Assembly: GCA_963780675.1 (NCBI GenBank)
Contig: CAWACR010000003.1
Location: forward strand, 981,454-1,045,453
Source of the DNA: an uncultured Actinomycetota bacterium
GTDB taxonomy: Bacteria > Actinomycetota > Actinomycetes > Actinomycetales > JAHECE01
Length of the DNA stretch: 64,000 nt
Direction: 5' to 3'
The notes beneath the pieces were generated by a model. That model made no database searches. It saw only the letters and a program-made list of their open reading frames with translations, and was not told the DNA's origin. This document shows positions 12,451 to 35,023 of the stretch, piece by piece; position 1 is the stretch's first letter; each line of letters starts with the position of its first letter. The position numbers and the translations under genes were made by a program.

Positions 12451-13956
12451 ATGAGTACGACCAAGGCTGTCCCCGTCACGGGTCAGGGCTTCAAGGGAAA
12501 CGACAAAGCCCTCCTCGGCATCGTGCTCGGCGTCCTCACGTTCTGGATGTTCGCCGGAACGATCGGCACCGTCGCCCGCAGCGTTCTGACCGACATCAAC
12601 GGCGGCCTGATCGACGAGGTGTCGGACCCGTTCGTCAATCTGAACCAGATGAACCTGGCGGTCTCGATCACGGCGCTGTTCTCCGGGCTGTTCATCGTCT
12701 TCGCCGGCGGGCTGGCCGACCGCATCGGCCGCGTGAAGATCGCGATCACCGGCAATGTCTTCGGAATCGTCGGATCGATTCTGATCATCTTCGCCAAGGC
12801 GGGTCTCGCCTTGCCGCTTCTGCTCTCCGGTCGCGCAATCCAGGGCCTGTCGGCAGCGTGCATCATGCCGGCGACGATGGCCCTGGTGAAGACCTACTGG
12901 GAGGGCGAGGCGCGCCAGCGCGCGGTCTCCATGTGGTCCATCGGCTCGTGGGGCGGCTCCGGCGTGGCGGCCCTGTTCGGCGGCTTCGTGGCGTCCACGG
13001 GCAACTGGCGCATCATCTTCTATGCGTCCGTCGTGGTCTCGATCATCTCGATCCTGCTGATCAGGGGCATCCCCGAGAGCAAGGCACCCCAGACCTCCCA
13101 CAAGAAGTTCGACCTGGTGGGCCTCATCATCTTCATGATCTCCGTGCTCGCCTTGATGATCGTGCTGATCTTCGGTCGCCAGATGGGCTGGACTGCTCCC
13201 TCGACGCTCGGCCTCGCCGCCGTCGCGTTGGTCGGGTTGGCCGTCTTCGTCCTGTACGAGAAGAGGCCGGAGAACCCGTTCATCGACTTCAAGCTCTTCA
13301 AGAACACCATTTTCACGGGCGCGACGATCTCGAACTTCCTCCTCAACGGAACGATCGGCCTGCTCATCGTCAGCCAGCAGATGCTGCAGATCGCTCGGCC
13401 CGAGCTCTTCGACCCCTGGAAGGCGGGGCTCCTGACCGTCGGCTACGCCATCGCGATCATCGCGTTCATCCCGGTCGGCCAGAAGCTGCTCCGAGCGTTC
13501 GGTCCGCGCAAGCCGATGATCTGGGGGGCCATGATCGTCGCCCTCGCCTCGATCCTCCTGATGCCGACGAACCTCCTGGTGGGCCAATACACGATCCTCG
13601 CCGTGATCGCCTATGCGCTCTTCGGCGTCGGCCTGGGCTTCTACGCCACCCCGTCGACCGACGCGGCGCTCTCGAACCTTCCCGCTGCGCAGGCCGGTTC
13701 GGGCGCAGGCATCTACAAGATGGCCTCGTCCCTGGGCGGTGCCATCGGCGCCGCACTCTCGCTGACCATCTTCACGTCGTTCCTCGGCGAGGGCGTCACC
13801 GTCGTCGGCGAACTCCTGCACATGCAGGGCATCCAGTCGAACGTGACCGTGAGGCAGGCCGGCATGGTCACGATGATGTTCAACCTCATCCTGGCGCTGA
13901 TCGCGATCATCTCGATCACGGTCACCATCCCGAAAGGCAAGAAGTACTACGACTGA
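12451..13956 (+). CDS. MFS transporter, 14-TM drug:H+ antiporter (DHA2/EmrB-QacA) type
   Basis: ATG at 12451 lies 10 nt after GGAGAGG (alternative ATG at 12442). Many TM segments are present, with an MFS motif-A-like [11 protein letters not shown]. Confidence 0.8.
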
Positions 13957-14657
13957 GGTCCGCCCACCGCCGACGCCTGCGCGGCGAGCGTCCGTAGCGC
14001 GTCCACTTCCGCGGCGGCCTCCTGGGCGGAGTAGACGGCGGAGCCGGCGACGAAGACGTTGGCTCCAGCCTCTGCCGCCTGCTCGATCGTCGCCCGGGAG
14101 ATCCCGCCGTCCACCTGAACCCACAGGTCAAGGCCCTGGGCGCGTGCCGCCAGGCGCGTACGACGCACCTTGGGAAGCATCGAGGCAAGGAAGGACTGCC
14201 CACCGAAGCCCGGATCGACGGTCATCACGAGGACCATGTCCACCTCGCCGAGGAGGTCGAAGAAGGGCTCGATCGGTGTCGCCGGGCGCAGCGCCAGGCC
14301 GACCCGAGCCCCCAGCCGCCGGATCTCCCTGGCGAGCCGCACGGGCGCGGCAGCGGCCTCGGCATGGAAGGTGACCGACGCGGCGCCCGCCTCGGCATAG
14401 GCGGGGGCCCAGCGGTCCGGGTCCTCGATCATGAGGTGTGCGTCGACCGGGATCGGGCTCGCCGCCACGATCCGCTCGACGACGGGCAGGCCGATCGTGA
14501 GGTTCGGGACGAAGTGGTTGTCCATGACGTCCACGTGCGCGAAGTCTGCGTTCGCGATGCGAGCGAGTTCCCCACGCAAGTCGGCGAAGTCAGCGGTCAG
14601 GATGCTCGGCGCGATGAGGATCTCCGCCCAGGGTGCGTGGTACCCGATACCGGTCAC
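13947..14657 (-). CDS. rpe: ribulose-phosphate 3-epimerase
   Basis: [36 protein letters not shown] and VDGGI are present. The GTG start at 14657 could be later. The 3' end overlaps the MFS gene 3' end by 10 nt (convergent). Confidence 0.9.
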
Positions 14658-14666
14658 GGCTCGGCC

Positions 14667-15101
14667 TCACAGGTCTTCGAGTTGCGCGACGCGAGTGGCG
14701 TGCCGGCCGCCCTCATATTCGCCACCGAGCCACGCATCGACGATCATCAGCGCGAGGCCGCCACCGACGACGCGGGCGCCGAGGGCGAGGACGTTGGTGT
14801 CGTTGTGCTGACGGGACAGAAGGGCGGAGTACGGCTCGGAGCAGCACACACACCGCACGCCCTGCACCTTGTTGGCCGCGATGGAGATCCCGACTCCCGT
14901 TCCGCAGATGACGATCCCGCTCTCGAGTTCGCCGGCGGCCACGGCCTCTGCCACCCGGCGGCCGTAGACGGGGTAGTCCGCCCGCGAGTCGTCGTGGTGA
15001 CCGAGGTCGACCACCTCGTATCCGCGCCGCTCGAGGTGGCGTTTGATCTCCACCTTGAGCCTGTAGCCGGCATGGTCGTTGCCGAGACCGATCGCCGCCA
15101 T
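14667..15101 (-). CDS. rpiB: ribose-5-phosphate isomerase B
   Basis: ATG at 15101 follows GAGGAAGG (MAAIGLGNDHAGYRLK...). CGTGVGISIAANK and the RpiB/LacA/LacB family signature are present. Confidence 0.9.
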   Translation of the reverse strand: MAAIGLGNDHAGYRLKVEIKRHLERRGYEVVDLGHHDDSRADYPVYGRRVAEAVAAGELESGIVICGTGVGISIAANKVQGVRCVCCSEPYSALLSRQHNDTNVLALGARVVGGGLALMIVDAWLGGEYEGGRHATRVAQLEDL

Positions 15102-15209
15102 GTGCCTTCCTCTCGCGAGATCACGTATCACCCCGGCCCGCGCCGGACCCCAGCCCCTCGTCGAGAGGCCAGGCTCCGGCGTCGGCCGGGTCGAGCCGGT
15201 GGTGCCGGG

Positions 15210-17272
15210 TCAGCGGGCGTGGCGGGTGATCTGTTCTTTGGCTTTGGACACGACGGCGTCGGGGGTGAAGCCGAACTTGGTGAGGAGTTCCTTCAGGGGG
15301 GCGGAGGCGCCGAAGGTCGACATCCCGATGATCGCGCCCTGGGGGGCGTACCGCTCCCACCCCAGGGTGGAGGCCTCCTCGACGGCGACCCGGGCCTGGA
15401 TCGCCGGGGGCAGGACCTGGTCCTGGTAGGCCTGGTCCTGGCGGGCGAACAGCTCCCAGGACGGCATGGACACCACCCGGGCGCGGATCCCCTCCGCCGT
15501 GAGGGTCTCGTAGGCGTCCACGACGAGCGCGACCTCCGAGCCGGTCGCGATGAGGATGACCTCCGGATCCTCCCCGTGGGCGGGTCGGCCAGCACGTAGG
15601 CGCCGCGGTGCAGGCCTGAGGCCGGGGCGTACTTCGTGCGGTCCAGCGTCGGCAACGCCTGGCGGGACAGGAACAGGGCGACCGGGTCATGGCGGCGGGG
15701 CATGAGCCAGCGCCACGCTTCGGCGACCTCGTTCGCATCCGCCGGGCGGATGTCCACCAGGCCCGGGATCGCCCGCAACGACAGGATCTGCTCGACCGGC
15801 TGATGCGTGGGCCCGTCCTCCCCCACCCCGATCGAGTCGTGCGTGTACACGTGGATCACGGGCAGCTCCATCAGAGCCGACAAGCGCACCGCACCCCGCT
15901 GGAAGTCGGAGAAGATCAAGAACCCCGCCTGATACGGGCGCACCTTGCACAGCGACAGGCCGTTCGCGATGCACCCCGCGGCGTGCTCACGCACCCCGAA
16001 GTGCAGGTTCCGCCCCGCCCGGTCCGCCGCCGAGAAGTCCCCCAGCCCGGTCATCGTGGTCTTCGTCGACGGCGCCAGGTCCGACGCCCCGCCCACCAGC
16101 CACGGCACGCCCGCCGCGACCGCGTTCAAGACCTTCCCCGAGGCTTCCCGCCCGGCCAGGCCCTTCGCATCCGCCGGGAACATCGGGATCGCGGCGTCCC
16201 AGTTCTCGGGCAGGGTCCGCTGCTGCATGTGCTCCAACTGGGCCGCCAGGTCCGGATGCGCCACCCCGTACGCGGCGTAGAGCTTCTCCCAGTCCGCCCG
16301 CACGGCCGCGCTGCGCGCCCCGATCCCGGCCTGGAAGTGCGCGTACACCTCATCCGGCACCAAGAACTGGGCATCCTCGGGCCAGCCGTAGAACCGCTTG
16401 GTGCCGCGGATCTCCTCCACACCCAGCGGCTCACCGTGCGCCCCGTGGGTGCCTTCCTTCGTCGGGGCACCGTAGGCGATCCGCGAGTCCACGATGATCA
16501 ACGTCGGGCGGCTGCCCTCCGCCTTGAACGTCCGGAACGCCCGCGCCAGCATCCGCCGGTCGTTCGCATCCCCCACCCGGGTGACGTTCCACCCGTAGCC
16601 GATGAACTTCGTCGCGATGTCATCCGAGAACGCCACCGACGTCGAGCCCTCGATCGTGATCTCGTTGTTGTCATAGATCCAGCACAAGTTGTCCAAGCCC
16701 AGGTGCCCCGCCAACGACGCCGCCTCCTGCGCGACGCCCTCCATCATGCAGCCGTCCCCACCCACCGAGTACACGTCGTAGTCGAACAGCTCATACCCGG
16801 GCCGGTTGAACGTCGCGGCCTGCCACTTGCTGGCCATCGCCATCCCGACCGAGGTGGCGTAGCCGGTGCCGAGCGGGCCCGTCGTGGCCTCCACCCCGGC
16901 GGTCCACCGGTACTCCGGATGACCCGGACACTTCGAATCCAGCTGCCGGAACCGCCTGATGTCGTCCAGGCTCACCGACGGCTCCCCCAACGTCTCGTAC
17001 TTCGGGTTCACCGACCGCACACCCGTCAAGTGCAACAACGAATACAACAACGTCGAGGCATGCCCCGCCGAGAGCACGAACCGGTCCCGATTCGCCCAGA
17101 TCGGCGCCGCCGGATCGAACCGCAAAAACTCCTGCCACAACGTGTACGCCACCGGCGCCAACGCAATCGGCGTCCCCGGATGACCCGAATTCGCCGCCTG
17201 CACCGCATCCATCGCCAACGTCCGCATCGTCGCGACAGCCATGTCGTCCAGATCGGTGATGTCTACCTTCAT
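15210..17272 (-). pseudogene. tkt: transketolase with one apparent 1-nt deletion near the 3' end
   Basis: The protein is intact from ATG 17272 (GHPGTPIALAPVAY, GDGCMMEG, THDSIGVGEDGPTHQP) to ...GAYVLADPPTG. The remaining C-terminus (EDPEVILIATG...VVSMPSWELF...STFGASAP...) continues in ORF 15210..15521. Total length is 3n-1. The C run at 15572-15575 is one base shorter than the reading frame requires. Confidence 0.85.
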
Positions 17273-17394
17273 TGACACGTGTGAACTCCCATTCGGCGAT
17301 CGAGGTCGGCGCGTCGGCGTGCTGCCGCGCAGCAGAGATGGCTACCCGTTCACTCTGACGTCCCCGGTCGCCGCTGGGAACCGCTTGCCACCAG

Positions 17395-17486: not shown

Positions 17487-18725
17487 GTGAGAACCTCCGA
17501 GCCCGTGCCGTCGCCTGCGCCCCACCCGCAGCTCCACGCCTGGATCGACGCCCGGGGCGGCATCGCCGGTGACATGCTCCTGGGCGCCCTCGTCGATGCC
17601 GGCGCCCCGCTCGCCGCCCTCCAGCGCGCCGTCGACGCCGTCATCCCCGGCACCGTGCGGCTCAGGGCCGGCACCGTGCACCGTGCCGGCATGCGCGCGA
17701 CAAAGGTCGACGTCGACAAGGTCGCCGACGACCTCCCCCACCGGCACTGGACCGACATCCGCGCCATGCTCGAACGTGCGGACGTCGACGACCACGTCCG
17801 CGCTCGGGCGCTCGCCGTCTTCGGCCGGCTGGCCCTTGCGGAGGCCCGCGCGCACGGCATCCCGCCCGAACAGGTGCACTTCCACGAGGTCGGCGCCTGG
17901 GACTCGATCGCGGACGTCGTCGGGGTCGCCGCGGCGTTGCACGAACTCGGCGTGGCGACGCTCAGCGCCGGGCCAGTCGCCCTCGGTTCGGGCTCCGTCC
18001 GGACGGCGCACGGAGAGATCCCCGTCCCGGTGCCCGCGGTGCTCGAGCTCGCCGCCGGCCGGCGCGTTCTCGGGGGCGGCACGGGCGAGCTGGCCACGCC
18101 CACGGGGATGGCGGTGGTCGTCGCCCTGGCGGAGGCGTGCGACGAGATGCCGGACCTGGAGGTCACCGCCGTCGGCGTCGGCGCCGGCACGCGGGACACC
18201 GCGGGTCGACCCAACGTCGTCCGCGTGGTGCTCGGGACGGCGGCCGAGCCGCTCAAGGTGAGCGACGCCGTCGTCCTCGAGGCGAACGTCGACGACCTCG
18301 ACCCCCGGGTGTGGCCCGGCGTGCTCGCGGCGTTGCTCGAGGCGGGGGCGTCCGACGCGTGGCTCACGCCGATCCTCATGAAGAAGGGACGACCTGCCCA
18401 CACGCTCGCCGTGCTCGCGGCGCCCGCGCGGGTGCCCGAGCTGCGCTCGCGCGTGTTTGCCCTCGTGCCCACGCTCGGCGTCCGGGAGACGGGGGTGCGC
18501 AAGACGGCGCTCGAGCGGACGTGGCGCACCGTCGACGTCGACGGCGCCGCAGTCCGGATCAAGGTCGCCCACGCGCGCCGGGTGATCGCTACGGCGACGC
18601 CGGAGTTCGAGGACGTGGCGCACGCGGCGGCCGCCTCCGGAACGCCCGTCCGGCACGTCCTCGACCGCGCGGTTGCCGCGGCCGTCGAGGCCGGGCTGAC
18701 GTCGGGCCGGCGGCTCCCGGACTGA
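17487..18725 (+). CDS. larC: nickel-pincer cofactor biosynthesis protein LarC (nickel insertion, DUF111 family), single fused ORF
   Basis: HAWIDARGGIAGDMLLGALVDAG, HFHEVGAWDSIADVVG and LMKKGRPAHTL are present. The start is GTG at 17487 or 17505 and remains uncertain. Confidence 0.85.
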   Translation: MRTSEPVPSPAPHPQLHAWIDARGGIAGDMLLGALVDAGAPLAALQRAVDAVIPGTVRLRAGTVHRAGMRATKVDVDKVADDLPHRHWTDIRAMLERADVDDHVRARALAVFGRLALAEARAHGIPPEQVHFHEVGAWDSIADVVGVAAALHELGVATLSAGPVALGSGSVRTAHGEIPVPVPAVLELAAGRRVLGGGTGELATPTGMAVVVALAEACDEMPDLEVTAVGVGAGTRDTAGRPNVVRVVLGTAAEPLKVSDAVVLEANVDDLDPRVWPGVLAALLEAGASDAWLTPILMKKGRPAHTLAVLAAPARVPELRSRVFALVPTLGVRETGVRKTALERTWRTVDVDGAAVRIKVAHARRVIATATPEFEDVAHAAAASGTPVRHVLDRAVAAAVEAGLTSGRRLPD

Positions 18726-18763: not shown

Positions 18764-19444
18764 CTACCGCGGAGCGGCGATCTGGGCGGCGAGGTGCCCG
18801 GCACCGTAGCCGTTGTCGATATTGACGACGGCTACGCCCGGCGCGCACGAGTTGAGCATCGTCAGCAGAGCCGCGAGGCCCTCGAAGGCGGCTCCGTAGC
18901 CGACCGACGTCGGTACGGCCACCACCGGAGCGGACACGAGGCCCGCGACGACGCTCGGCAACGCCCCGTCCATCCCGGCGACGACGACGACGGCGCTCGC
19001 CCGGCGGAGGAGGTCCAGTCGCCCCAGCACCCGGTGCAGGCCCGCGACACCGACGTCCATGACCAGCTCGCAGGACCGGCCGAGATAGGTCGCGGTCAGG
19101 ACCGCCTCGCGGGCGACTCGCAGGTCCGAGGTGCCGGCCGCGGCCACGACCACGAGCCCGCCCGTGGCTTCCGGGGGCTCCGGCGGCCAGGCGAGGAGGC
19201 CGGCCTCGGCGTCGACCATGGCGTCCGGCAGCTCGGCGAGGACGGCCTCGACGTGCCCGTCGCGCGCGCGGGTGAACAGGGTCTGCGTGCCGTTCCGGCG
19301 CACTCCGGCGGCGATCACGCGGAGCTGGGCGGGGCTCTTGTGCTCGCAGTAGACGGCCTCGGGATAGCCGCGGCGGCGTGCGCGGTCGTGATCGAGATCG
19401 GCGATGCGCGCCAGCGAGGCGGGCACCTCCCACGCGTCAGCCAC
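18764..19444 (-). CDS. larB: nickel-pincer cofactor biosynthesis protein LarB (AIR-carboxylase-like)
   Basis: GTG at 19444 overlaps the larE 3' end by 8 nt. IADLDHDRARRRGYPEAVYC, AAAGTSDLRVAREA, VAGMDGALPSVVAG, VAVPTSVGYG and VNIDNGYGAG are present. Confidence 0.85.
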   Translation of the reverse strand: MADAWEVPASLARIADLDHDRARRRGYPEAVYCEHKSPAQLRVIAAGVRRNGTQTLFTRARDGHVEAVLAELPDAMVDAEAGLLAWPPEPPEATGGLVVVAAAGTSDLRVAREAVLTATYLGRSCELVMDVGVAGLHRVLGRLDLLRRASAVVVVAGMDGALPSVVAGLVSAPVVAVPTSVGYGAAFEGLAALLTMLNSCAPGVAVVNIDNGYGAGHLAAQIAAPR

Positions 19445-20324
19445 GGACGGCGACCAATGGAAGGGTGAAGGCGCCCGACTGGATCCCTGCCACGTCGAGA
19501 GCCACGAAACGGAAGCCGGCTGCCCGCACCACCCGGATGACCTGCTCGCGCAGGCCGGGCGAGACAGCGCGCACGAGGTCCTCGGCGGGCAGCTCGATCC
19601 GGGCGACGTCGCCGTGGTGGCGGACCCGGCAGTCCCCGAACCCCAGACCGCGCAGGGCCGACTCCGCGGCGTCGATCTGCCGCAGCTTCTCGGGCGTGAC
19701 CTCCTCGAAGTGCGGGATGCGCGAGGCCAGGCAGGGGGCGGCGGGCTTGTCGGCGCAGGGTAGGTCGAAGGCCCGGGCGACGGCCCGCACCGCCGGTTTG
19801 TCGAGGCCGGCATCGGCGAGCGGGCGGAGCACGGCGTGGTTCGTGGCAGCGCGGGACCCCGGGCGGTCGGGCCGGCGGGCGTCGTCGGCGTTCTCGCCGT
19901 AGGCGATGGCCGTCAGACCGAACCGGCCGGCGACGTCGTCGGAGATCCGCGTGAAGAGCTCGTCCTTGCAGTGGAAGCAGCGGTCGGGGCCATTGGCCCG
20001 GTAGGAGGGGTTGTCCCCCTCGTGCGTGGCGACCTCGACCAGGGGAACGCCGACATGGGCAGCGACGGCGTGCGCGGCAGCCCGCTCGTCCACGGCCAGG
20101 CTCGGCGAGACCCCGAGGACGGCGAGCGTGCGGTGGGCACCCAGCACGCGGACAGCGACGGCGAGCAGGACCGAGGAGTCGACGCCCCCGGAGAACGCCA
20201 CGCCGAGCCGGGCGGGCCGGCCGATCGCGGCGGCGACGCGCGCGATGGCGGCCTCGACGTCGACCTCGGTGCCGGTCGCCGGGGCACCGCCCGGCTGGCG
20301 GACAGGGGAATCGGGGGTGGCCAC
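19437..20324 (-). CDS. larE: ATP-dependent sacrificial sulfur transferase LarE (PP-loop ATPase)
   Basis: PP-loop [21 protein letters not shown] and the Cys-containing PCLASRIP are present. The start is taken as GTG at 20324; alternatives lie upstream as far as 20453. Confidence 0.8.
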
Positions 20325-20390: not shown

Positions 20391-20413
20391 GCAACTTCTG
20401 GCAAACGGTTGCC
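20391..20413. promoter_or_regulatory. candidate LacI-type operator (half-site + 14-mer) between larE and tal
   Basis: GCAAC-ttct-GGCAAACGGTTGCC. The 14-mer is a near-palindrome with a central CG. The same architecture occurs at 25871, 29395, 38188 and 40253. Confidence 0.4.
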
Positions 20414-21676: not shown

Positions 21677-21702
21677 GTCGGGCTCGACGTGAGCGCTGCC
21701 GG

Positions 21703-25780: not shown

Positions 25781-25803
25781 GCTATCGGTTGCTCTTTGTT
25801 GTC
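25781..25803. promoter_or_regulatory. candidate LacI-type operator (reverse orientation) in the GPH / lacI-1 divergent region
   Basis: The plus strand reads GCTATCGGTTGC-tcttt-GTTGTC. The reverse complement reads GACAAC-aaaga-GCAACCGATAGC. Confidence 0.35.
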
Positions 25804-25870: not shown

Positions 25871-25905
25871 GACAACCCCGTGACAATCGGTTGCCGTGTG
25901 TTGTC
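25871..25905. promoter_or_regulatory. candidate LacI-type operator flanked by half-sites in the GPH / lacI-1 divergent region
   Basis: GACAAC-cccgt-GACAATCGGTTGCC-gtgt-GTTGTC. The core has a central CG, and the outer half-sites are inverted. Confidence 0.45.
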
Positions 25906-26973: not shown

Positions 26974-27072
26974 ACGCACTCGGCTCGCGCGAGCCCGATC
27001 CGACGGTCCTGGGTCAGACGGTCCTGGGACAGCCGGAGGGAGCGCGCGTACGGTGACCGTGGGAGGTGTCCC

Positions 27073-28128
27073 TTGACAGGTCCGTCCGTCCCGACGATCT
27101 ACGACGTCGCGAAGCTAGCCGGCGTCTCGGCGTCGACGGTCTCCCGTGCGTACTCGCGTCCGGGCCGGGTCGCCCCGGGGACGTCCGAACGGATCCTGGG
27201 CTCCGCCGCGAGACTCGGCTATCGCGCCCACGTCGTCGAGGCGGCGCCGTCCGGGAACGCCGACGTCGTGGCCTTGATCGTCCCCGATTGCGCGAGCCGC
27301 TTCGATGCAGAACTGGTGCACTGGATGGGCACCTACGCCGCGCGGGCCGGCCACTCGGTGGCAGTGGTCCTCGTCGGAACCGAGGACTCCCGGCTGGGTG
27401 AACGTCCATCCATCGAGAGGGTGCTCCCCGCCGTCGGCGGGGTCGTGATCTCCGGGCCTCGCATGCCCGACTCGACCATCCGCGTGATCGCGAAGCAGCG
27501 GCCGACGGTGGTGCTGAACCGGGTGGTCGCCGACGTCCCCAGCGTGGTCCGCGACACCCTGCACGGCATGCGCCTGGCGGTCGAGCACTTGGCGACGCTC
27601 GGCCATCACGACGTGACCTACGTCGCGGGCCCCGCGGACTCGTGGGCGGACGGGGTCCGCTGGCGCTCGATCCGGGAGGCGTCGCTTGACCTCGGGGTGC
27701 ACGCGCGCCGGATCGGCCCCTGTCCGGCGGACATCGCGTCTGGGGTGCGGGCGGCCGACGAGCTGCTCGCCCAGCGCGACTCGGCGGCCATCGCCTTCAA
27801 CGACGTCCTCGCCCTCGGCGTCATCCGTGGCCTTGCTGCCCGTGGACGTCGCGTCCCGGCCGACGTGAGCGTCGTCGGCGTCGACGACATCGAGTTCGCC
27901 TCGCTCGTGACCCCCTCGCTGACCACGGTCAGCCTCTCCAAGCAGGTGATGTGCGCCCTTGCCACGGCGACCCTCGACAGGCTCATGCGAGGCGAGACAC
28001 CCGGGCCGGACGACCGCGTCCAAGTGGTGCCCGCCCGGCTCGTCGTCCGCGACTCGACCGCTCAGCGCAGGCGGAAGAGCACCTCTCCGGCGTTGGGCAC
28101 GACCAGGGTCTCCGGATCGGACTCGTAG
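27073..28128 (+). CDS. LacI-family transcriptional regulator (paralog 2)
   Basis: TTG at 27073 follows GGGAGG. The HTH is PTIYDVAKLAGVSASTVSRAYSRPGRV. It aligns with paralog 1 along its whole length. The 3' tail overlaps the convergent LarA-like gene by 67 nt. Confidence 0.8.
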   Translation: MTGPSVPTIYDVAKLAGVSASTVSRAYSRPGRVAPGTSERILGSAARLGYRAHVVEAAPSGNADVVALIVPDCASRFDAELVHWMGTYAARAGHSVAVVLVGTEDSRLGERPSIERVLPAVGGVVISGPRMPDSTIRVIAKQRPTVVLNRVVADVPSVVRDTLHGMRLAVEHLATLGHHDVTYVAGPADSWADGVRWRSIREASLDLGVHARRIGPCPADIASGVRAADELLAQRDSAAIAFNDVLALGVIRGLAARGRRVPADVSVVGVDDIEFASLVTPSLTTVSLSKQVMCALATATLDRLMRGETPGPDDRVQVVPARLVVRDSTAQRRRKSTSPALGTTRVSGSDS

Positions 28129-29351
28129 GCCGCCAGGTCGAAGTCCTGGGGGGCGATGTAGCCGAGGTTCGCCTTGCGCACCTTCTCCTCGGGGATCGTC
28201 GTGACGAGCGTGACGTCCACGCGGCACTTCTCGCCCTCGACCTCGTCGTACGTCCCGGCACCGCGCAGGTGCGTGCTGTGCGCGAGGACGCCCCAGTGCA
28301 CGTCCTTGAACCGGTCCCACTGCTTCACGAAGTAGTCCCGGCAGTGGTAGCCGATCTCGTAGATCTCGTGGTGGGTGAACGAGATCTCGGAGATGTGCGG
28401 GGCATAGATGATGACCTCGCCGCCGTCCGCGACGACGGGCTCGAGCTTGTAGAAGCCCTTGGCCGCCGTCCAGATCTCCGGGTACTTCTCGGGGATGATC
28501 GAGACGACGCGCTTCACCGGGGCATCCAGGTACCGGACGTGCGTCTCGGCGGTGACCTCGGCCGCGGACGCCCACGCGGTCTCTGTGGTACCGAACGTCA
28601 CGGCGTGCAGGGAGTACGAGCCGGCCTGCGGCACGATGCACAGCGCGAGCTTCTCGCTCGGGATGAGGTTCGACGCCTCGTTGATGAGGGCACGCACGGG
28701 CGTGATCCCGCGGGTGCCGATGATCTGAGCACTCGTGATCAGGGCGCCGACCCAGTGGGTGAGATCGATGATGTCCTGACCGGCGACACCCGGGAAGAAG
28801 TACTTGTTGCCGCCCGACATGCCCACCACCTCGTGCGGGAGGACCGGGCCGATGACCAGGGCGACGTCGTTCTCGACGACGGCGCGGTTGAGGTCCACCT
28901 TCGCCGGGACGTCGAGCCGTCCCTCGGTCAGCTCCTTCACCCGCTCGGCGCTGATCGTGCCCAGCGAGGCGAACGTCTCCGGCTCCCACCACTCGTGCTG
29001 GATGACGTTCAGGCCCGGGTACGTGGCCTCCAACCCGTGCTCCTCGTACCCCATCCAGTGAGCGAGCTCCGTCTCGCTCATCGCGGCGTGGGTCCCCAGG
29101 GCGATGAGGGCTGTGAGGGCGCTCACCCGGCCGACGAGGGCTTCGTGCACGCAGGAGAGGAGCATCGGCAAGGGGCTGCTGCGGGTGGCGTCCGGGAGGA
29201 CGAGGCACACGCTCTTGCCGTCGAGGTCGGCACCGCCGAGGGACTCGAGGATGAAGGCGCGCACCTCCTCGGTGGTGAGAACCCGGTCCGGTCCGCCGAT
29301 CCGGGAAGCGTCACGGGCCAGCGCGGAGACGTCGTCGAGAGTCGCGGTCAT
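28062..29351 (-). CDS. LarA-family nickel-pincer-dependent 2-hydroxyacid racemase/epimerase homolog (DUF2088)
   Basis: ATG at 29351 (MTATLDDVSALARD...). LVLPDATRS is present. PHEVVGMSGGNKYFFPG matches the LarA H..G.SGG.K..PG segment that carries the cofactor-tethering Lys. LAHSTHLRG is also present. Substrate is unknown. Confidence 0.75.
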   Translation of the reverse strand: MTATLDDVSALARDASRIGGPDRVLTTEEVRAFILESLGGADLDGKSVCLVLPDATRSSPLPMLLSCVHEALVGRVSALTALIALGTHAAMSETELAHWMGYEEHGLEATYPGLNVIQHEWWEPETFASLGTISAERVKELTEGRLDVPAKVDLNRAVVENDVALVIGPVLPHEVVGMSGGNKYFFPGVAGQDIIDLTHWVGALITSAQIIGTRGITPVRALINEASNLIPSEKLALCIVPQAGSYSLHAVTFGTTETAWASAAEVTAETHVRYLDAPVKRVVSIIPEKYPEIWTAAKGFYKLEPVVADGGEVIIYAPHISEISFTHHEIYEIGYHCRDYFVKQWDRFKDVHWGVLAHSTHLRGAGTYDEVEGEKCRVDVTLVTTIPEEKVRKANLGYIAPQDFDLAAYESDPETLVVPNAGEVLFRLR

Positions 29352-29394: not shown

Positions 29395-29418
29395 GGCAAC
29401 ACCCGGCAACCGATTGCC
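29395..29418. promoter_or_regulatory. candidate LacI-type operator (half-site + 14-mer) in the larA-like / uxaC divergent region
   Basis: GGCAAC-accc-GGCAACCGATTGCC, with a central CG. Confidence 0.45.
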
Positions 29419-29448: not shown

Positions 29449-30858
29449 ATGGCCACGCTCACCCTGCATCCCGATCGCCTCCTGCCCGCCGACCCGACCA
29501 CCCGCGGCATCGCCCGTGAGCTCTACGCCGCGGTGCGCGACCTTCCGATCATCTCCCCCCACGGCCACGTCCCGCCGCAGTGGCTGGCCGACGACGTCCC
29601 CTTCGAGGACCCGACCTCTCTGCTCATCACGCCGGACCACTACGTGAACCGGATGATGCACGCGCACGGCGTGTCGCTGTCCGACCTGGGCGTGGGCCAG
29701 AGCGGGTTCACTCCTGAGCAGTCGCGCAACGCCTTCCGCATCCTCTGCTCGCACTGGAAGGCCTACCGCGGCACCCCGGTGAAATTCTGGTTCGAGTCCG
29801 AGCTCGTCGACATCTTCGGGATCGAGGTCGTGCCCTCGGCGGAGACGGCCGACGAGATCTACGACGCCATCGCCGAGAGGATCGCGACCCCCGAGTTCCT
29901 GCCGCGGGCCCTGTACCGGTCGTTCCCGATCGAGTTCATCGCCACGACCGATGACCCGTCCGACGACCTGCGCCACCACATCAAGCTCGCGGACGACCCC
30001 ACCTGGGACGGCTCAGTCGCCCCGACCTTCCGCCCGGACAAGTACCTGGAGCCCGCCACGCCCGCCTGGAACGGCCTCGTCGACCGGCTCGCCGAGGTCT
30101 CGGGCATCGACACGGGCACCTACGCCGGCTGGGTCGCCGCGATGGAGAACCGGCGCGCCTTCTTCAAGGCCAACGGCGCCGTCTCCACCGACCACTCCCA
30201 CCGCGACGCACGCGTCGAGCCGATCAGCGACGCCGAGGCCGAGCGCCTGTACGACCTGGCCCGCGCGGGAACGATCACGGTCGAGGAAGGCCACACCCTC
30301 CGCCGGAACTTCATGTTCCAGCAGGCCCGGATGGCCGCGGACGACGGCTTGGTCATGACGCTGCACCCGGCGGTCTACCGCAACCACCACAGCCCGACCT
30401 TTGAGAAGTACGGCGCCGACGTCGGTGGCGATATCCCGATGGGCGTGGAGTTCACCAACGCCGTCCAGCCGATGCTGTCGGCGTTCGGCACGGCCCCCAA
30501 CTTCCAGGTCATCTTCTTCACGATCGACGAGACCGTGTACTCGCGCGAGCTCGCTCCGCTGGCCGGCTTCTACCCGTCGGTCTACATCGGCGCCCCGTGG
30601 TGGTTCATCGACTCGCCCGAGGCCATGACCCGGTACCGCAGCGCGGTCACCGAGACGGCCGGCTTCTCCCGCACGTCGGGCTTCATCGACGACACCCGGG
30701 CGTACCTGTCGATCCCCGCCCGCCACGACACCAACCGCCGGATGGACTCGGGCTTCCTCGCGAAGCTCGTCGCCGACCACCGCCTGACCATGGACGAGGC
30801 CCTCGACACCGCCTACGACCTCGTCGTCACCAACCCCAGGAAGGCCTTCAAGCTGTGA
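29449..30858 (+). CDS. uxaC: glucuronate isomerase
   Basis: ATG at 29449 (MATLTLHPDRLLPADPTTRGIARELYAAVRDLPIISPHGHV...). The TIM-barrel UxaC family signature runs throughout, including FTIDETVYSRELAPLAG and WWFIDSPE. Confidence 0.9.
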   Translation: MATLTLHPDRLLPADPTTRGIARELYAAVRDLPIISPHGHVPPQWLADDVPFEDPTSLLITPDHYVNRMMHAHGVSLSDLGVGQSGFTPEQSRNAFRILCSHWKAYRGTPVKFWFESELVDIFGIEVVPSAETADEIYDAIAERIATPEFLPRALYRSFPIEFIATTDDPSDDLRHHIKLADDPTWDGSVAPTFRPDKYLEPATPAWNGLVDRLAEVSGIDTGTYAGWVAAMENRRAFFKANGAVSTDHSHRDARVEPISDAEAERLYDLARAGTITVEEGHTLRRNFMFQQARMAADDGLVMTLHPAVYRNHHSPTFEKYGADVGGDIPMGVEFTNAVQPMLSAFGTAPNFQVIFFTIDETVYSRELAPLAGFYPSVYIGAPWWFIDSPEAMTRYRSAVTETAGFSRTSGFIDDTRAYLSIPARHDTNRRMDSGFLAKLVADHRLTMDEALDTAYDLVVTNPRKAFKL

Positions 30859-32243
30859 GCGACACGACCACCCCCGCCCCCCGGCTCTCCCGGGCGGCCG
30901 GCCACGGCCGACCGGCCGCACCCGTGCGCATCGTGCACGTGGGCCTCGGCAACTTCTTTCGGGCGCACCAGGCCTGGTACACGGACAAGGCGCCCGACGC
31001 GGCCGAGTGGGGCATCGCGGCCTTCACCGGTCGATCGGCCGCCATGGCGAACGCTCTGAACCCGCAGGACGGCCTCTACACGCTCATCACCCGGGGTGCG
31101 ACCGACTCGTTCGACGTCATCTCGAGCGTCTCAGCCGTGCACGCGGCGTCCGACCACGAGGCCTGGGTCCGCTACTGGTCCTCTCCGGACCTCGCCGTCG
31201 TCACCCTCACGGTGACGGAGGCCGGCTATATGCGCGCCCCCGGTGGCGCCCTCGACACCTCGCGCGAGGACGTCCGGGCCGACATCGCAGCGCTGACGGC
31301 CGACCCGCTGGCCCCGGCGGCCACCGCGCCCGGCCGGATCGTCTCCGGCTACCTGGCGCGTCGCGCTGCCGGCGCGGGAGCGATCGCGATCGTGCCGTGC
31401 GACAACCTCCCCGACAACGGCCCGGCGCTGACGCGGGTGGTCGGCGACTTCATCGCGGCAGTCGACCCGACCCTGGCCGACTGGGCCGCCGAGAACGTGG
31501 CGTTCGGCACGACGATGGTCGACCGGATCACTCCGGCGACCACGGACGAGCACCGTCAGGCCGTTCTCGCCGCCCTCGGCGTGGTCGACGCCTCCCCGGT
31601 GCCGACCGAGCCGTTCAGCGAGTGGGTCATCTCCGGTGAGTTCCCGAAGGGGCGGCCGGCGTGGGACGCCGCAGGCGCGTCGATCGTCGACGACGTGGTG
31701 CCCTTCGAGCAGCGCAAGTTGTGGCTGCTCAACGGCTCGCACTCACTCCTCGCCTACTCCGGCACGATCCGCGGCCACGAGACCGTGGCCGACGCGATCA
31801 ACGACCCGGTGAACCGGGCCTGGGTCGAGGAGTGGTGGGACGAGGCGTCCCGCCATCTCACCCTTCCCGAGGCCGACGTCGCGGCGTACCGGCAGGCGCT
31901 CCTGACGCGGTTCGAGAGCCCCAACATCCGCCACGTCCTCGCCCAGATCGCCGCCGACGGATCCCAGAAGATCCCGGTGCGGATCGTCCCGACCCTGCGG
32001 GCCGATCTGGCCGCCGGCCGGGTGCCCGTGGGCGCGACGCGCGCCGTCGCCGCGTGGGTCTGCCACCTGCGCGGCCTCGGCGCCCCGATCAAGGACGCCC
32101 GCGCGGCCGAGGTCGCCCCGTTCGGTGAGGGCAGCCTGGAGCAGTCGGTCGAAAAGGTCCTCGCCTTCCTCGGCGACGATCTCGCCGCCGACGGGCGAGT
32201 GGTCGCCGCCGTGCTGGCGCACGCCCGCGGATTCTCGGCGTAG
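30855..32243 (+). CDS. uxuB: mannitol dehydrogenase-family oxidoreductase, fructuronate/mannonate reductase-like
   Basis: GTG at 30855 overlaps the uxaC stop (GTGA). IVHVGLGNFFRAHQAWY, TVTEAGY, VPCDNLPDNG, MVDRITP and KLWLLNGSHS are present. Substrate assignment rests on context only. Confidence 0.7.
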   Translation: MSDTTTPAPRLSRAAGHGRPAAPVRIVHVGLGNFFRAHQAWYTDKAPDAAEWGIAAFTGRSAAMANALNPQDGLYTLITRGATDSFDVISSVSAVHAASDHEAWVRYWSSPDLAVVTLTVTEAGYMRAPGGALDTSREDVRADIAALTADPLAPAATAPGRIVSGYLARRAAGAGAIAIVPCDNLPDNGPALTRVVGDFIAAVDPTLADWAAENVAFGTTMVDRITPATTDEHRQAVLAALGVVDASPVPTEPFSEWVISGEFPKGRPAWDAAGASIVDDVVPFEQRKLWLLNGSHSLLAYSGTIRGHETVADAINDPVNRAWVEEWWDEASRHLTLPEADVAAYRQALLTRFESPNIRHVLAQIAADGSQKIPVRIVPTLRADLAAGRVPVGATRAVAAWVCHLRGLGAPIKDARAAEVAPFGEGSLEQSVEKVLAFLGDDLAADGRVVAAVLAHARGFSA

Positions 32244-32257: not shown

Positions 32258-33820
32258 ATGACGACCTCAGTCGACGAGGCCGGCCGGACCGGCGAGGCCG
32301 GCCCGGCGGCTGAGGTCGTCATCGGTCTCGACGTCGGGACCACCGCCACGAAGGCCGTCGCCTTCGAGCTCGGCTCGGCCTGGCGGTACACCGCCATCCG
32401 CGAGTACCCGCTCATAGCACCCCAGCCGGGGTGGCAGGTCCAGGAGCCCGCGGCGATCAGTGCGGCCGTGGTGAGCGCGCTGGCCGAGTGCGTGGCAGCG
32501 GTGGGCGGAGCCCCCATCATTGCGCTCTCCGTCAGCACCGCCATGCACGCGGTCATCGGCCTGGACGCGCAGCTCGAGCCCCTGACGTCGATGATCACCT
32601 GGGCCGATGCACGGTCCACGGCCGAGGCGCGCGGCCTGCGCGCGTCCGACCTCGCCACGGACCTCTACCGGACCTCCGGGACGCCCATCCACCCGATGAC
32701 GCCCCTGACCAAGATCATGTGGTATTCGCGCCGGGAGCCGGTGTTCACCTCGCGCGTGCGGTGGTGGGCCGGGTTGAAGGACTTCGTGCTGGTCACGCTC
32801 ACCGGGACGATGGCGACCGAGCTCTCGTCGGCGTCCGGCACCGCGATGCTCGACCTCACCACCCGGGACTGGAGCCCGCTGGCGATCGAGCTGGCGGGCA
32901 TCCGAGCCGACCAGCTCCCCCCGATCCTGCCGACGACGGCGACGCTCGGGCTCTCCGAGGCGGTCGCCGCCGCCGTCGGGCTGCCGGCCGGGCTGCCGGT
33001 CGTCGTGGGAGCGGGCGACGGCCCGCTGGGGAACGTCGGGACGGGCGCGATGGCGCCCGGCGTCGCCGGGCTCTCGCTCGGCACGAGCGGCGCCGTACGG
33101 ATGCTCGTGCCCCGGCCCACGCTCGACCCGGCCGGACGGCTCTTCTGCTACGCCCTGACCGAGGACCAGTGGATCGTCGGCGGCGCGGTGAGCAACGGCG
33201 GCGTGGTGGTCCGGTGGGCCGGCGAGGTGTTCGGCCACGGCCTCGGCGCCTCGGACGACACGCCGCACGACGCCGAGCTCCTCGCTCTCGCCGAGGCGGT
33301 CCCGCCGGGGAGCGACGGCCTGCTCATGCTGCCCTACCTGCTGGCGGAGAGGGCGCCGCTGTGGGATCCCGACCTTGCGGGCGCCTACCTGGGCATTCGG
33401 CACGGGCACACCCGCGGCCACTTCGTCCGCGCGACGGTCGAGGGCGTCGCGCTGCAGCTCTCGACCATCGTCGAGGCGCTCGACCGGATCGAGCCGGTGC
33501 GGTCCCTGCGGGCGACGGGCGGGGCGTTCCGCTCCGTGCTCTGGCGCCGTGTGCTCGCGGCCGCCCTGGGGCGTCCGGTCACCGTCACCGCGGGCGCCGA
33601 GGGCTCCGCGCTTGGGGTGGCCGCCCTCGCCCTCGTCGCCCTCGGGCGGGCGCCGGACCTGACCTCCGCCGTCGAGGCTCTCGGTCCGCCGACGGACGCG
33701 CGGCCGGTCGAGGTGCCCGAGGTGGCGAGCCCGGGCGAGGTCGCGTTCTACCGAGGGCTGCGGGCGTCGGTGCCGAGTCTCCTCGCGGCGTACGACGAGG
33801 TGGCACGGCTGTTCGCGTGA
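32258..33820 (+). CDS. gntK: FGGY-family carbohydrate kinase, gluconokinase-like
   Basis: VIGLDVGTTATKAVAF, GWQVQEP, TWADARS, GAGDGPLGNVGTGA and GGAFRS are present. The gluconate assignment is by resemblance to FGGY-type GntK and by context. Confidence 0.65.
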   Translation: MTTSVDEAGRTGEAGPAAEVVIGLDVGTTATKAVAFELGSAWRYTAIREYPLIAPQPGWQVQEPAAISAAVVSALAECVAAVGGAPIIALSVSTAMHAVIGLDAQLEPLTSMITWADARSTAEARGLRASDLATDLYRTSGTPIHPMTPLTKIMWYSRREPVFTSRVRWWAGLKDFVLVTLTGTMATELSSASGTAMLDLTTRDWSPLAIELAGIRADQLPPILPTTATLGLSEAVAAAVGLPAGLPVVVGAGDGPLGNVGTGAMAPGVAGLSLGTSGAVRMLVPRPTLDPAGRLFCYALTEDQWIVGGAVSNGGVVVRWAGEVFGHGLGASDDTPHDAELLALAEAVPPGSDGLLMLPYLLAERAPLWDPDLAGAYLGIRHGHTRGHFVRATVEGVALQLSTIVEALDRIEPVRSLRATGGAFRSVLWRRVLAAALGRPVTVTAGAEGSALGVAALALVALGRAPDLTSAVEALGPPTDARPVEVPEVASPGEVAFYRGLRASVPSLLAAYDEVARLFA

Positions 33821-33949
33821 CCACGGCTGTTCGAGTAGCGCAGTGCGGCGCCCCGGCTGTGAGCGGACGGCGTCGGGAAGGACGAGGCCGGCGCGGCCGG
33901 CGACGACGCGGCCCGAGAGGCCGACCTTGGAACGAAAGGGTGCACATTC

Positions 33950-35023
33950 ATGAAGCTCCGTCACGACGCGAAATGGTCCCTCGTGGTACCGACCTCCATG
34001 GGGATCCGGATCACCCCTGAGAACGGCCAGCCGGTCCACACCAGCGACCGCTTCCTCATGCAGGTCACCTCGGCCGAAACCAACGTGGCCGCCGTCCCCT
34101 CCTACCTCGGCATGCCGACGCTGGTGCTGACCAACTTCGTCCAGGACAGCCCCATCTCCGCGATGATCAAGTCGAACCTGCTGGCGCGGCACATGCAGTA
34201 CGAGGGCCCCGATGTGCCGCAGGGCGATGCCTGGGGATACCGCCACCAGTTCAACATCGCCGACTCCGGCTACGGCAGCCGCGGCCCTCGCGTGTGGAAC
34301 GACCGAGCAGGCGAGGTCGGGCGCACCCTGAACGTCAAGGACTTCGACCTCGACCGCGTCTTCGGCGACGAGGGGGTCAGAATCCTCCACATGTCCGGCG
34401 TCATCGCCGCCCTGTCCTCGGACACCTCGAACTTCTGCCTCGAGCTCGCGCGGGCCGCCAAGAAGTACGGCACGGCGATCTCGATGGACATGAACTACCG
34501 CGCGTCGTTCTGGAAGGGCCGCGAGGCCGAGTTGTCCGCCGCCTTCAAGGAGATCGCCGGCGAGTGCGACATCCTCATCGGTAACGAGGAGGACTTCCAG
34601 TACTGCCTCGGCTTCGAAGGGCCCGAGACCGGCGGCACGGGCATCGCAGGCAAGATCGACGGCTTCAAGGAGATGATGGACCGCGTCATGGCCGCCTATC
34701 CGAAGGCGTCCTTCTTCGCCACCACGCTGCGCGAGGTCCGCTCCGCCAACAGCCACATGTGGGGCATGCTCGTCTACGGCGACGGCGAGTTCCACGTCGC
34801 GGACCTCCGGGAGATCGGCGTCCTCGACCGCGTCGGCGGCGGCGACGGCTCGGTCGGCGGCCTCATCTACGGCATCCTCAAGGGCTGGCCGGCCGTGAAG
34901 TGCATGCAGTTCGGCTGGGCCACCGGAGCCCTGGCCGCCACGTCGATCACCGACTACGGCGCGCCGGCCGACGAAGAGCAGGTCTGGTCGATCTGGCAGG
35001 GCAACGCCCGCGTCAAGCGCTGA
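33950..35023 (+). CDS. PfkB-family sugar kinase, 2-keto-3-deoxygluconate kinase-like
   Basis: ATG at 33950 (MKLRHDAKWSLVVPTSMGIRITP...). The PfkB C-terminal motif DRVGGGDGSVGGLIYG is present. Confidence 0.65.
   Translation: MKLRHDAKWSLVVPTSMGIRITPENGQPVHTSDRFLMQVTSAETNVAAVPSYLGMPTLVLTNFVQDSPISAMIKSNLLARHMQYEGPDVPQGDAWGYRHQFNIADSGYGSRGPRVWNDRAGEVGRTLNVKDFDLDRVFGDEGVRILHMSGVIAALSSDTSNFCLELARAAKKYGTAISMDMNYRASFWKGREAELSAAFKEIAGECDILIGNEEDFQYCLGFEGPETGGTGIAGKIDGFKEMMDRVMAAYPKASFFATTLREVRSANSHMWGMLVYGDGEFHVADLREIGVLDRVGGGDGSVGGLIYGILKGWPAVKCMQFGWATGALAATSITDYGAPADEEQVWSIWQGNARVKR

Follow-up and report, generated by a model that had tools for sequence, protein, structure and literature searches.

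A predicted nickel-pincer mannonate/gluconate 2-epimerase in a probable glucuronide catabolic island of an uncultured member of Actinomycetota

The stretch of DNA analysed here, referred to below as the window, comprises 64,000 nucleotides (nt) of contig CAWACR010000003.1 (positions 981,454 to 1,045,453, forward strand) from the GenBank assembly GCA_963780675.1 of an uncultured Actinomycetota bacterium. Between about 13.9 and 39.6 kb it encodes enzymes of the pentose phosphate pathway, proteins of nickel-pincer cofactor biosynthesis, a homolog of LarA, enzymes of hexuronate conversion, two sugar kinases, a glucuronide-transporter-like symporter and two LacI-family regulators, followed by a pair of oxidoreductases and a pair of TIM-barrel proteins (Table 1). 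Most likely, this region of a Cellulomonadaceae-like actinobacterium represents one island for the catabolism of glucuronides and glucuronate, with control of the LacI type. Its central element is the LarA homolog, a predicted D-mannonate/D-gluconate 2-epimerase, through which, as an earlier note on this DNA had proposed, hexuronates would be channelled into the pentose phosphate pathway.

Since the window has a G+C content of about 70%, genes were called by codon-position GC bias, and they were identified through Pfam, NCBIfam and PDB sequence searches. These family searches placed all genes named in the earlier note where it had drawn them or within a few codons. For the comparison with related loci, one genome per species was scanned, yielding 495 stretches that encode relatives of the LarA homolog, and the best 80 of them were analysed. 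All 80 derive from Actinomycetota and their LarA homologs are 62-94% identical to the window protein; the nearest relatives among them are a metagenome-assembled genome (MAG) of Actinomycetales and an Actinotalea MAG. Gene identities, the epimerase clade, conserved residues, conserved neighbourhoods and a shared operator were all computed in this work.

Table 1. Genes and operator-like sites of the island in window coordinates; bits are search scores and cut-offs are those of the NCBIfam models
Feature	Coordinates	Strand	Evidence or position
rpe, ribulose-5-phosphate 3-epimerase	13947..14657	-	Pfam Ribul_P_3_epim, 250 bits
rpiB, ribose-5-phosphate isomerase B	14667..15131	-	Pfam LacAB_rpiB, 190 bits
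tkt, transketolase	15210..17278	-	Transketolase_N and Transket_pyr in the open reading frame 15293-17278; C-terminal domain in other frame
Operator-like site GGAACCGCTTGC	17377..17388	.	Divergent tkt/larC region; GTTGCC 5 nt later
larC, nickel insertion, fused LarC1 and LarC2	17487..18725	+	Pfam Ni_insertion, 422 bits; NCBIfam LarC1 and LarC2 above cut-offs
larB, nicotinic acid adenine dinucleotide carboxylase/hydrolase, nickel-pincer cofactor	18764..19444	-	NCBIfam LarB equivalog, 270 bits, cut-off 175
larE, sacrificial sulfur transferase	19437..20324	-	NCBIfam TIGR00268 LarE, 267 bits, cut-off 150
Operator-like site GCAAACGGTTGC, perfect match	20401..20412	.	Divergent larE/tal region; flanking GTTGCG
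tal, transaldolase, actinobacterial type	20481..21596	+	NCBIfam transaldolase, 537 bits, cut-off 367
YeaD-like aldose-1-epimerase-family protein, putative hexose-6-phosphate mutarotase	21703..22560	-	Pfam Aldose_epim, 164 bits
gnd, 6-phosphogluconate dehydrogenase, disrupted	22622..24104	-	Pfam 6PGD C-terminal domain
GPH-family symporter, glucuronide-transporter-like	24242..25693	-	NCBIfam glucuronide transporter, 467 bits, cut-off 528; gph subfamily model reached
Operator-like site GCTATCGGTTGC	25781..25792	.	Divergent GPH/lacI1 region; then GTTGTC
Operator-like site ACAATCGGTTGC	25883..25894	.	Divergent GPH/lacI1 region; GACAAC/GTTGTC on both sides
lacI1, LacI-family regulator	25927..26973	+	Pfam LacI and Peripla_BP_3
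lacI2, second LacI-family regulator	27073..28128	+	Pfam
LarA homolog (larAH), Group 19 (GntE1-type), predicted nickel-pincer D-mannonate/D-gluconate 2-epimerase	28062..29351	-	Pfam Lar_N, 69 bits; PDB 4NAR
Operator-like site GCAACCGATTGC, perfect match	29406..29417	.	97-bp divergent larAH/uxaC region; flanking GTTGCC
uxaC, glucuronate isomerase	29449..30858	+	NCBIfam equivalog, 544 bits, cut-off 387
uxuB-like fructuronate reductase, mannitol dehydrogenase family	30855..32243	+	Pfam Mannitol_dh N- and C-terminal domains
FGGY-family gluconokinase-type kinase (GntK-like)	32258..33820	+	NCBIfam gntK_FGGY best match, 367 bits, cut-off 648
PfkB-family kinase, KdgK-like	33950..35023	+	PDB 2AFB (T. 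maritima 2-keto-3-deoxygluconate kinase), 111 bits
Operator-like site ACAACCGGTTGC	35051..35062	.	Intergenic, bordered by the 3' ends of TIM1 and the kdgK-like gene
TIM1, xylose-isomerase-like TIM-barrel protein ('sugar phosphate isomerase' type)	35167..36027	-	Pfam AP_endonuc_2; PDB 8TCT, 8TCS, 8TCD
GFO1, Gfo/Idh/MocA oxidoreductase	36128..37213	-	Pfam; PDB 8TDI, 129 bits; DgpA, 105 bits
TIM2, xylose-isomerase-like TIM-barrel protein	37258..38085	-	Pfam AP_endonuc_2, 93 bits; PDB
Operator-like site GCCATCGTTTGC	38187..38198	.	Divergent TIM2/GFO2 region; then GTTGCC
GFO2, Gfo/Idh/MocA oxidoreductase, ortholog-level match to P2B11 glucuronide 3-dehydrogenase	38455..39624	+	PDB 8TDI

The LarA homolog aligned nearly over its full length (residues 46-428) with the PDB entry 4NAR, which is TM0442 (GntE2) of Thermotoga maritima (E 4.5e-60, 207 bits), and weaker PDB matches were obtained to LarA and Mar2. 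Its group was assigned by alignment with the sequences and signature residues that Desguin et al. 2020 provide as supplementary data. A look-up of its exact sequence in public assemblies returned no record. Identity to the seven Group 19 sequences ranged from 49% (Roseiflexus) to 68%, with 61-68% to the uncharacterised actinobacterial members; single values were 68% for Intca_2465, 66% for Franean1_3196 and 52% for LarAH19/GntE1 of Corynebacterium glutamicum. Outside this group, identity was 35% to GntE2 of Group 20 and 27-31% to members of Group 18. The catalytic and cofactor-binding residues, which in LarA are D72, R75, H108, H174, K184, H200 and K298 (PMC7583248), are all conserved in the alignment with Groups 18-20, as D54, R57, H88, H173, K183, H199 and K298. 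Moreover, Group 19 is marked by a 'G2E2' signature made up of E-V directly behind the catalytic His, the helix 11 residues W-T-A-K and the helix 14 residues G-L-A-S-T-H-R (PMC7583248). This signature is complete in the window protein, at the positions H173-E174-V175, W294-T-A-A-K298 and G-V-L-A-H-S-T-H-L-R within the motifs PHEVVG, IWTAAKG and WGVLAHSTHLRG, and over its 20 residues the protein equals GntE1 save for one Leu/Ile position. The best NCBIfam model, 'Group 18 putative hexonate epimerase', reached 163 bits against a cut-off of 500 and was rejected, as direct comparison gives Group 19; a Group 19 model was not among the NCBIfam matches of the protein. We also considered whether a split within Group 19 between PVLPHEVVG(M/I) and PVFPHEVVGF marks linkage to uronate genes, and dropped it, as both types mostly adjoin uxaC/uxuB. 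Judged from sequence, the LarA homolog belongs to Group 19, the GntE1-type D-gluconate 2-epimerases. With the nickel-pincer cofactor, both GntE1 and GntE2 form D-gluconate from D-mannonate in vitro (PMC7583248), and the placement in this clade with proven activity, with signature residues complete, agrees with the mannonate/gluconate 2-epimerase predicted for this gene beforehand and not with a clade of another proven substrate.

The cofactor that such an enzyme needs would be supplied from the same region: larB, larC and larE are all located less than 11 kb from the LarA homolog and all score above the NCBIfam equivalog cut-offs, which completes the set expected for nickel-pincer synthesis. 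Enzymes predicted to act before and after the epimerase are equally close, with uxaC, the fructuronate reductase gene, the epimerase gene, the gluconate kinase gene and gnd all contained in less than 11 kb. The uxuB-like gene has a GTG start that overlaps the stop codon of uxaC; its product scored 270 bits, under the cut-off, with the NCBIfam fructuronate reductase model, nearly as well with models of other polyol dehydrogenases, and matched the PDB entries 1LJ8 and 4IM7 (YdfI of Escherichia coli). The best PDB match of the FGGY kinase was the gluconate kinase 3GBT (282 bits, versus 166 for a xylulokinase), and the KdgK-like PfkB kinase matched the NCBIfam models of 2-keto-3-deoxygluconate (KDG) kinase far below their cut-offs. 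An ortholog of the GPH symporter with 93% identity is found at the equivalent position in one related locus (L001). The putative mutarotase scored 159 bits with the PDB entry 2HTA and 101 bits with the hexose-6-phosphate mutarotase 2CIQ.

As for the classical route of mannonate dissimilation, Pfam scans detected no domain of UxuA, of an enolase-type mannonate dehydratase or of 2-keto-3-deoxy-6-phosphogluconate (KDPG) aldolase in any open reading frame of the window that was scanned, and tblastn with the UxuA and Eda sequences of E. coli gave no match in the window or in the 80 related loci (1.38 Mb). These probes were validated at 795 and 348 bits, respectively. The window is, as previously described, devoid of uxuA and KDPG aldolase by both searches while possessing a KdgK-like kinase. 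Aldarate-pathway genes were likewise not detected by the Pfam scans of window open reading frames.

The gene neighbourhood of the LarA homolog is shared with many relatives. Divergently adjacent uxaC was present in 55 of the 76 related loci with enough flank, and a uxuB-like gene came next after uxaC in 55 of 68; an ortholog of lacI1 adjoins the LarA homolog in 61 of the 80 loci. Other neighbours were counted on the 49 of 80 loci that have full 10-kb flanks, where at least one lar gene was seen in 34 loci, a LacI ortholog in 33, gnd in 19, an FGGY kinase in 17 (at least one of these two in 25 and both in 11), a GPH transporter in 17 and a beta-glucuronidase in 15. The gene directly after uxuB encodes an FGGY kinase in 15 of 50 loci, and in some loci, e.g. 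that of Knoellia, this kinase is paired with gnd; tkt together with tal was found near the epimerase in the nearest relative only (L002). In five Propionibacteriales-type loci (L007, L009, L010, L014 and L015) a gene for a KdgK-like PfkB kinase directly follows uxuB, about 4 kb from the LarA homolog, with no FGGY kinase within 10 kb and with gnd nearby in some; this PfkB kinase might replace the gluconate/mannonate kinase there. Open reading frames downstream of uxuB in related loci that have no counterpart in the window were also considered, and were set aside as unrelated genes at the operon end. The second regulator gene, lacI2, has a counterpart in just one of the 80 relatives, and it shares 67 nt at its 3' end with the 3' end of the LarA homolog, which is encoded on the opposite strand.

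Because this neighbourhood is conserved in related loci, the linkage of the LarA homolog is robust, and because the same neighbours surround it in dozens of other genomes, the clustering is no chance assemblage. Co-occurrence of the epimerase clade with uxaC, uxuB and a gluconate kinase, which the earlier note had suggested to examine across genomes, does recur in Actinomycetota together with gnd and lar genes, and a lack of conservation is refuted. The published context of Group 19, covering three genes on each side, lists LarE, LarB, LacI, glucuronate isomerase, a COG0246 dehydrogenase, LarC and beta-glucuronidase (PMC7583248, Table S1); the linkage of Group 19 to gnd and gntK is an addition to it.

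Adjacent to the kinase genes, the region 35167-39624 encodes two Gfo/Idh/MocA oxidoreductases and two TIM-barrel proteins, a set that had been missed before. A system of the same make-up, with two oxidoreductases and two 'sugar-phosphate isomerases', was described from P2B11 and cleaves alpha- and beta-glucuronides via a 3-keto intermediate (Nasseri et al., bioRxiv 10.1101/2024.03.25.586180). The divergently encoded GFO2 matched the PDB entry 8TDI with E 1.2e-149 and 502 bits (58% identity over 385 residues), and all six active-site residues of the P2B11 glucuronide 3-dehydrogenase (N147, W179, R181, Y185, N205 and H209; bioRxiv 10.1101/2024.03.25.586180) are kept, as N128, W160, R162, Y166, N186 and H190. 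The three PDB entries matched by TIM1 carry annotations as sugar phosphate isomerases. By homology, the four-gene set is putatively assigned to the non-Koshland (non-hydrolytic) glucuronide-cleaving systems of the P2B11 type. A uidA gene was not found in the window; relatives often carry uidA in place of, or besides, the P2B11-like set. Apart from this, a beta-glucuronidase gene (uidA; assigned by the NCBIfam equivalog at 885 bits and counted by tblastn) lies near the LarA homolog in 26 of the 80 loci, e.g. at 12301-14115 of L049, and in many of them just beyond the LacI regulator, at the position taken by the GPH transporter in the window. Free hexuronate, from which the path of the earlier note proceeds, is less plausible as the imported substrate than a glucuronide: since a glucuronide-type transporter is present and the P2B11-like module with the operator of the island adjoins it, the predicted path most likely starts from glucuronides.

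This operator is a near-palindrome with CG at its centre, GCAANCGNTTGC, which was spotted by eye and evaluated statistically afterwards. With at most one mismatch it occurs seven times in the window versus 1.3 ± 1.1 expected, and none of 100 shuffles reached seven. All seven copies are intergenic, while intergenic DNA makes up about 17% of the window; six of them lie in divergent promoter regions, and five of the six regions concerned are divergent. Furthermore, six of the seven copies have an extra half-site GTTG(C/T)(C/G) exactly 5 nt away, and at the site starting at 25883 the half-sites on both sides extend it to a palindrome of roughly 35 bp. The site ACAACCGGTTGC at 35051 is doubtful as a functional operator, because it is without a flanking half-site. 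A strict scan of the intergenic regions for AT-rich palindromes returned nothing useful. Upstream of the LarA homolog the site is found in 14 of 79 related loci, some 66-121 nt away, mostly 66-68. The pattern indicates that one LacI-type regulon with this putative operator may comprise the operons of the lar genes, the pentose phosphate genes, the transporter, the epimerase and uxaC, which lends support to the earlier explanation of why lar genes are embedded among pentose phosphate genes.

Strong GC-rich hairpins are located at 21640-21680, where tal and the mutarotase gene converge, and at 24165-24205, where the stop codon of the GPH gene is followed by the start of gnd. Both are probably terminators, and for the latter it follows that gnd may not share a transcript with the GPH transporter. 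Short tandem direct repeats (CAGACGGTCCTGGG twice and CCGGCAGTGCAGTCCCGA twice) were observed in the intergenic regions 26974-27072 and 22561-22621.

Every gene of the path that had been described as complete within 21 kb was identified; two of them, gnd and tkt, are interrupted in this sequence. The gnd reading frame starting from the ATG at 24104 runs for 58 codons into an in-frame TGA at 23930-23928, and tblastn with the intact Gnd of L002 spread the homology over two frames. Compared with the L002 gene, single bases are inserted near 23937, 23909, 23853, 23413, 23038 and 22793 and two bases near 22901, whereas a deletion is seen near 23026; the seven insertion events (eight bases in all) and the one deletion are all outside homopolymer runs. 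The Pfam 6PGD domain is matched only from profile position 38, and the cluster as sequenced contains no intact 6-phosphogluconate dehydrogenase gene. In tkt, a G run near 15565 contains a single -1 frameshift, as three-frame translation and comparison with L002 revealed; owing to this change the C-terminal domain (to about 15210) falls in another frame. All other genes for which comparison with L001 or L002 was possible gave single-frame alignments. Uniform sequencing noise is an unlikely cause of the gnd indels, since these other genes keep one frame while one 1.5-kb gene accounts for eight of the nine events that disrupt a frame. The disruptions reflect either a local assembly problem, e.g. 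a paralog-mixed consensus, or real decay, perhaps affecting a paralogous set of pentose phosphate genes.

We infer the substrates, the direction of flux, the order of epimerase and kinase and the co-regulation as follows. Glucuronides would be imported by the GPH symporter, and D-glucuronate would be freed from them via a 3-keto intermediate by the four-protein oxidative module of two Gfo/Idh/MocA and two TIM-barrel proteins. UxaC would isomerise D-glucuronate to D-fructuronate, and the UxuB-like reductase, translationally coupled to it, would yield D-mannonate. The Group 19 LarA homolog would then invert C2 and produce D-gluconate, carrying for this purpose the nickel-pincer nucleotide made by LarB, LarE and LarC and acting by transient hydride abstraction with a 2-keto intermediate. 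D-gluconate would be phosphorylated by the GntK-type FGGY kinase to 6-phosphogluconate, which Gnd would decarboxylate to ribulose-5-phosphate, and the latter would be rearranged by the dedicated Rpe/RpiB/Tkt/Tal set. In net terms, glucuronate would be converted to pentose phosphate with no net redox cost. We consider glucuronide import, glucuronate release and entry into the pentose phosphate pathway via the nickel-pincer mannonate/gluconate epimerase to be the probable function of the island.

Several observations weigh against this route. The Michaelis constant (KM) of GntE1 for D-mannonate is 120 mM, and its discoverers doubted mannonate as the native substrate (PMC7583248). The FGGY kinase, the reductase and the transporter of the window all score below the NCBIfam equivalog cut-offs; the FGGY kinase is found in just 17 of the 49 full-flank loci, and some Propionibacteriales-type loci have the PfkB kinase as the sole kinase nearby. 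No operator was detected directly upstream of gnd in the window scan, gnd and tkt are interrupted, and the KdgK-like gene in the uxaC operon points to some flux through the KDG route. The last point suggests that a KDG branch coexists with the epimerase route, possibly served by uxuA and eda located elsewhere in the genome. The claim that the epimerase operates instead of the classical UxuA/KDG route is left unsupported by a single window; with the KdgK-like kinase in the same operon, a parallel branch is at least as likely. Another question is whether the downstream half of the path is decaying in this organism, with gnd and tkt as true pseudogenes and the island non-working as drawn unless paralogs elsewhere compensate. 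Nine frame-disrupting changes in two genes, next to single-frame alignments of the other genes compared with L001 and L002, and the position of the gnd indels outside homopolymers speak for such decay, but the codon-position GC bias of gnd is still strong, relatives carry intact gnd, and the ratio of seven insertions to one deletion is more typical of assembly or consensus error, e.g. two gnd paralogs mixed; on the whole we regard decay as possible, although doubtful.

The order of the two central steps could also be reversed within the same net route: D-mannonate would first be phosphorylated by the FGGY (or PfkB) kinase, and the LarA homolog would then form 6-phosphogluconate by epimerising the 6-phospho-D-mannonate so produced. 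Extracts of Lactobacillus suebicus turn mannonate into 6-phosphogluconate only with ATP, via 6-phosphomannonate (PMC6978723), and both the very high KM of GntE1 for free mannonate (120 mM) and the score of the FGGY kinase under the gluconokinase equivalog cut-off are in line with a kinase acting first. However, free mannonate is epimerised in vitro by GntE1 as well as GntE2, the closest solved relative of the FGGY kinase is annotated as a gluconate kinase, and Groups 18-20 of the published LarA dataset contain no Lactobacillus sequence; the reversed order therefore appears unlikely to us. We would grant no greater chance to its wider form, in which Group 19 LarA homologs would in vivo be the missing 6-phosphomannonate 2-epimerase and the 'GntK-like' FGGY kinase (in Propionibacteriales-type loci, the PfkB kinase) the mannonate kinase; if true, it would explain the 120 mM KM of GntE1 and give genes to two orphan activities. 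The same poor KM for mannonate would be consistent with an epimerase working one step earlier, on D-fructuronate (5-dehydro-D-mannonate), where it would invert C2, with the resulting 5-dehydro-D-gluconate being reduced to D-gluconate by the enzyme of the mannitol dehydrogenase family. On chemical grounds fructuronate is a 2-hydroxyacid whose C2 epimer is 5-keto-D-gluconate, and the reductase stays under the fructuronate-reductase cut-off with near-equal scores for other polyol dehydrogenases. Such an activity is, though, without report in the literature examined, the first two classical steps usually show the translational coupling of uxaC and uxuB seen here, and the closest solved relatives of the reductase include the mannitol-dehydrogenase-family YdfI of E. 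coli, making this scheme highly improbable. Finally, the native substrate may be another one altogether, such as an aldarate or other hexonate, with a classical UxuA-KdgK-Eda route encoded elsewhere and with gnd and the pentose phosphate genes serving gluconate or pentose metabolism. The discoverers of GntE1 themselves suggested an aldarate or uronate as native substrate (PMC7583248), the KdgK-like kinase lies within the uxaC operon, and our view is limited to the window, the rest of the genome lying outside it. Nevertheless, the tightest conserved partners of the LarA homolog either make mannonate (uxaC and the uxuB-like gene) or consume gluconate (the GntK-type kinase and gnd), the window is free of aldarate-pathway, UxuA and Eda genes and the 80 loci are free of UxuA and Eda homologs, and the pentose phosphate operons carry the same operator, which leaves a different substrate with a slim chance.

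The epimerase route into the pentose phosphate pathway has several precedents, and the novelty implied for it earlier does not stand. According to the accounts in PMC7583248 and PMC6978723, it was from the gene context in T. maritima that Rodionova et al. 2012 proposed a bypass leading from mannonate to gluconate. The activity itself was shown by Desguin et al. 2020 for members of Groups 19 and 20, with the statement that mannonate probably enters the pentose phosphate pathway in this way (PMC7583248), and a 2024 study added a eukaryotic GntE. Because both the class of enzyme and the idea of the pathway have been published before, the island is not a discovery of principle; it is a well-supported new example of a published route, not a new pathway. 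It should also be mentioned that no demonstration of in vivo flux from hexuronate to 6-phosphogluconate by this route in Actinomycetota was found in the literature.

With GntE1/LarAH19 of C. glutamicum the window protein shares Group 19 membership, 52% identity and the same need for the LarB/C/E-made cofactor, although it is closer to uncharacterised actinobacterial members such as Intca_2465 (61-68%) than to this characterised enzyme. From the published Group 19 context the window contains LarE, LarB, LacI, glucuronate isomerase, the COG0246 dehydrogenase and LarC, and differs from it in that gnd, a kinase gene of the GntK type and a set of non-oxidative pentose phosphate genes are linked to the epimerase as well. 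As far as the accounts of the Thermotoga gntE-gntK-gnd proposal describe it, the same series of reductase, LarA-type 2-epimerase, gluconate kinase and 6-phosphogluconate dehydrogenase is clustered there; GntE2 itself (TM0442, 4NAR), however, is of Group 20 and only 35% identical to the window protein. According to the same accounts T. maritima is a hyperthermophile in which the genes stand in a pectin/galacturonate context and the classical UxuA/KdgK/KdgA coexist, whereas the window presents a glucuronide context in Actinomycetota with interleaved lar and pentose phosphate genes. The L. suebicus route (Valk et al. 2020, PMC6978723) resembles the one proposed here in joining the upper UxaC/UxuB steps to 6-phosphogluconate, with redox-neutral entry into the pentose phosphate pathway, but has the kinase first and phosphoketolase downstream, and is known from extract activities (PMC6978723). 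With the classical Ashwell pathway the window has in common UxaC, a UxuB-like reductase and a KdgK-like kinase within one operon, and departs from it in the absence of UxuA and KDPG aldolase from the window and the 80 neighbourhoods, with a LarA-type epimerase, a GntK-type kinase and gnd in their stead. The glucuronide-cleaving set likewise corresponds to that of P2B11 in encoding two Gfo/Idh/MocA oxidoreductases and two TIM-barrel 'isomerase' proteins together, and deviates in gene order, with three genes on one strand and the dehydrogenase gene divergent. Moreover, no transporter or regulator is apparent nearby on the P2B11 fosmid, whereas the set in the window has the operator of the island and, next to it, a glucuronide-type transporter, regulators of the LacI family and the genes for the further breakdown of glucuronate.

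The comparison of 80 loci ties Group 19 to mannonate-making and gluconate-consuming enzymes, and bears in this way on the question of its native substrate. The shared operator offers a testable explanation for the interleaving of lar and pentose phosphate genes, and the island would give a P2B11-type cleaving system its physiological context, i.e. a transporter, a regulator and a downstream pathway. We see three useful additions: the linkage of Group 19 to gnd and gntK, the operator of the putative regulon, and a P2B11-type module that is coupled to the island by position as well as by regulation. Furthermore, redox-neutral conversion of uronate to pentose phosphate has been noted as attractive for engineered fermentation of uronate-rich biomass (PMC6978723).

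Beyond the island, two genes for GH3 glycosidases are located at 41455-43038 and 44181-46373, one NagZ-like and the other of the beta-glucosidase/xylosidase/arabinopyranosidase type, with homologs of 75-83% identity in six and three related loci, respectively; both may belong to the same glycoside-utilisation neighbourhood. At the other end of the window, the region 9196-9783 encodes a type I restriction R subunit of which just the C-terminal part is present, and the neighbouring stretches 4236-6378 and 8203-9196, which show little coding signal, may be further gene remnants.

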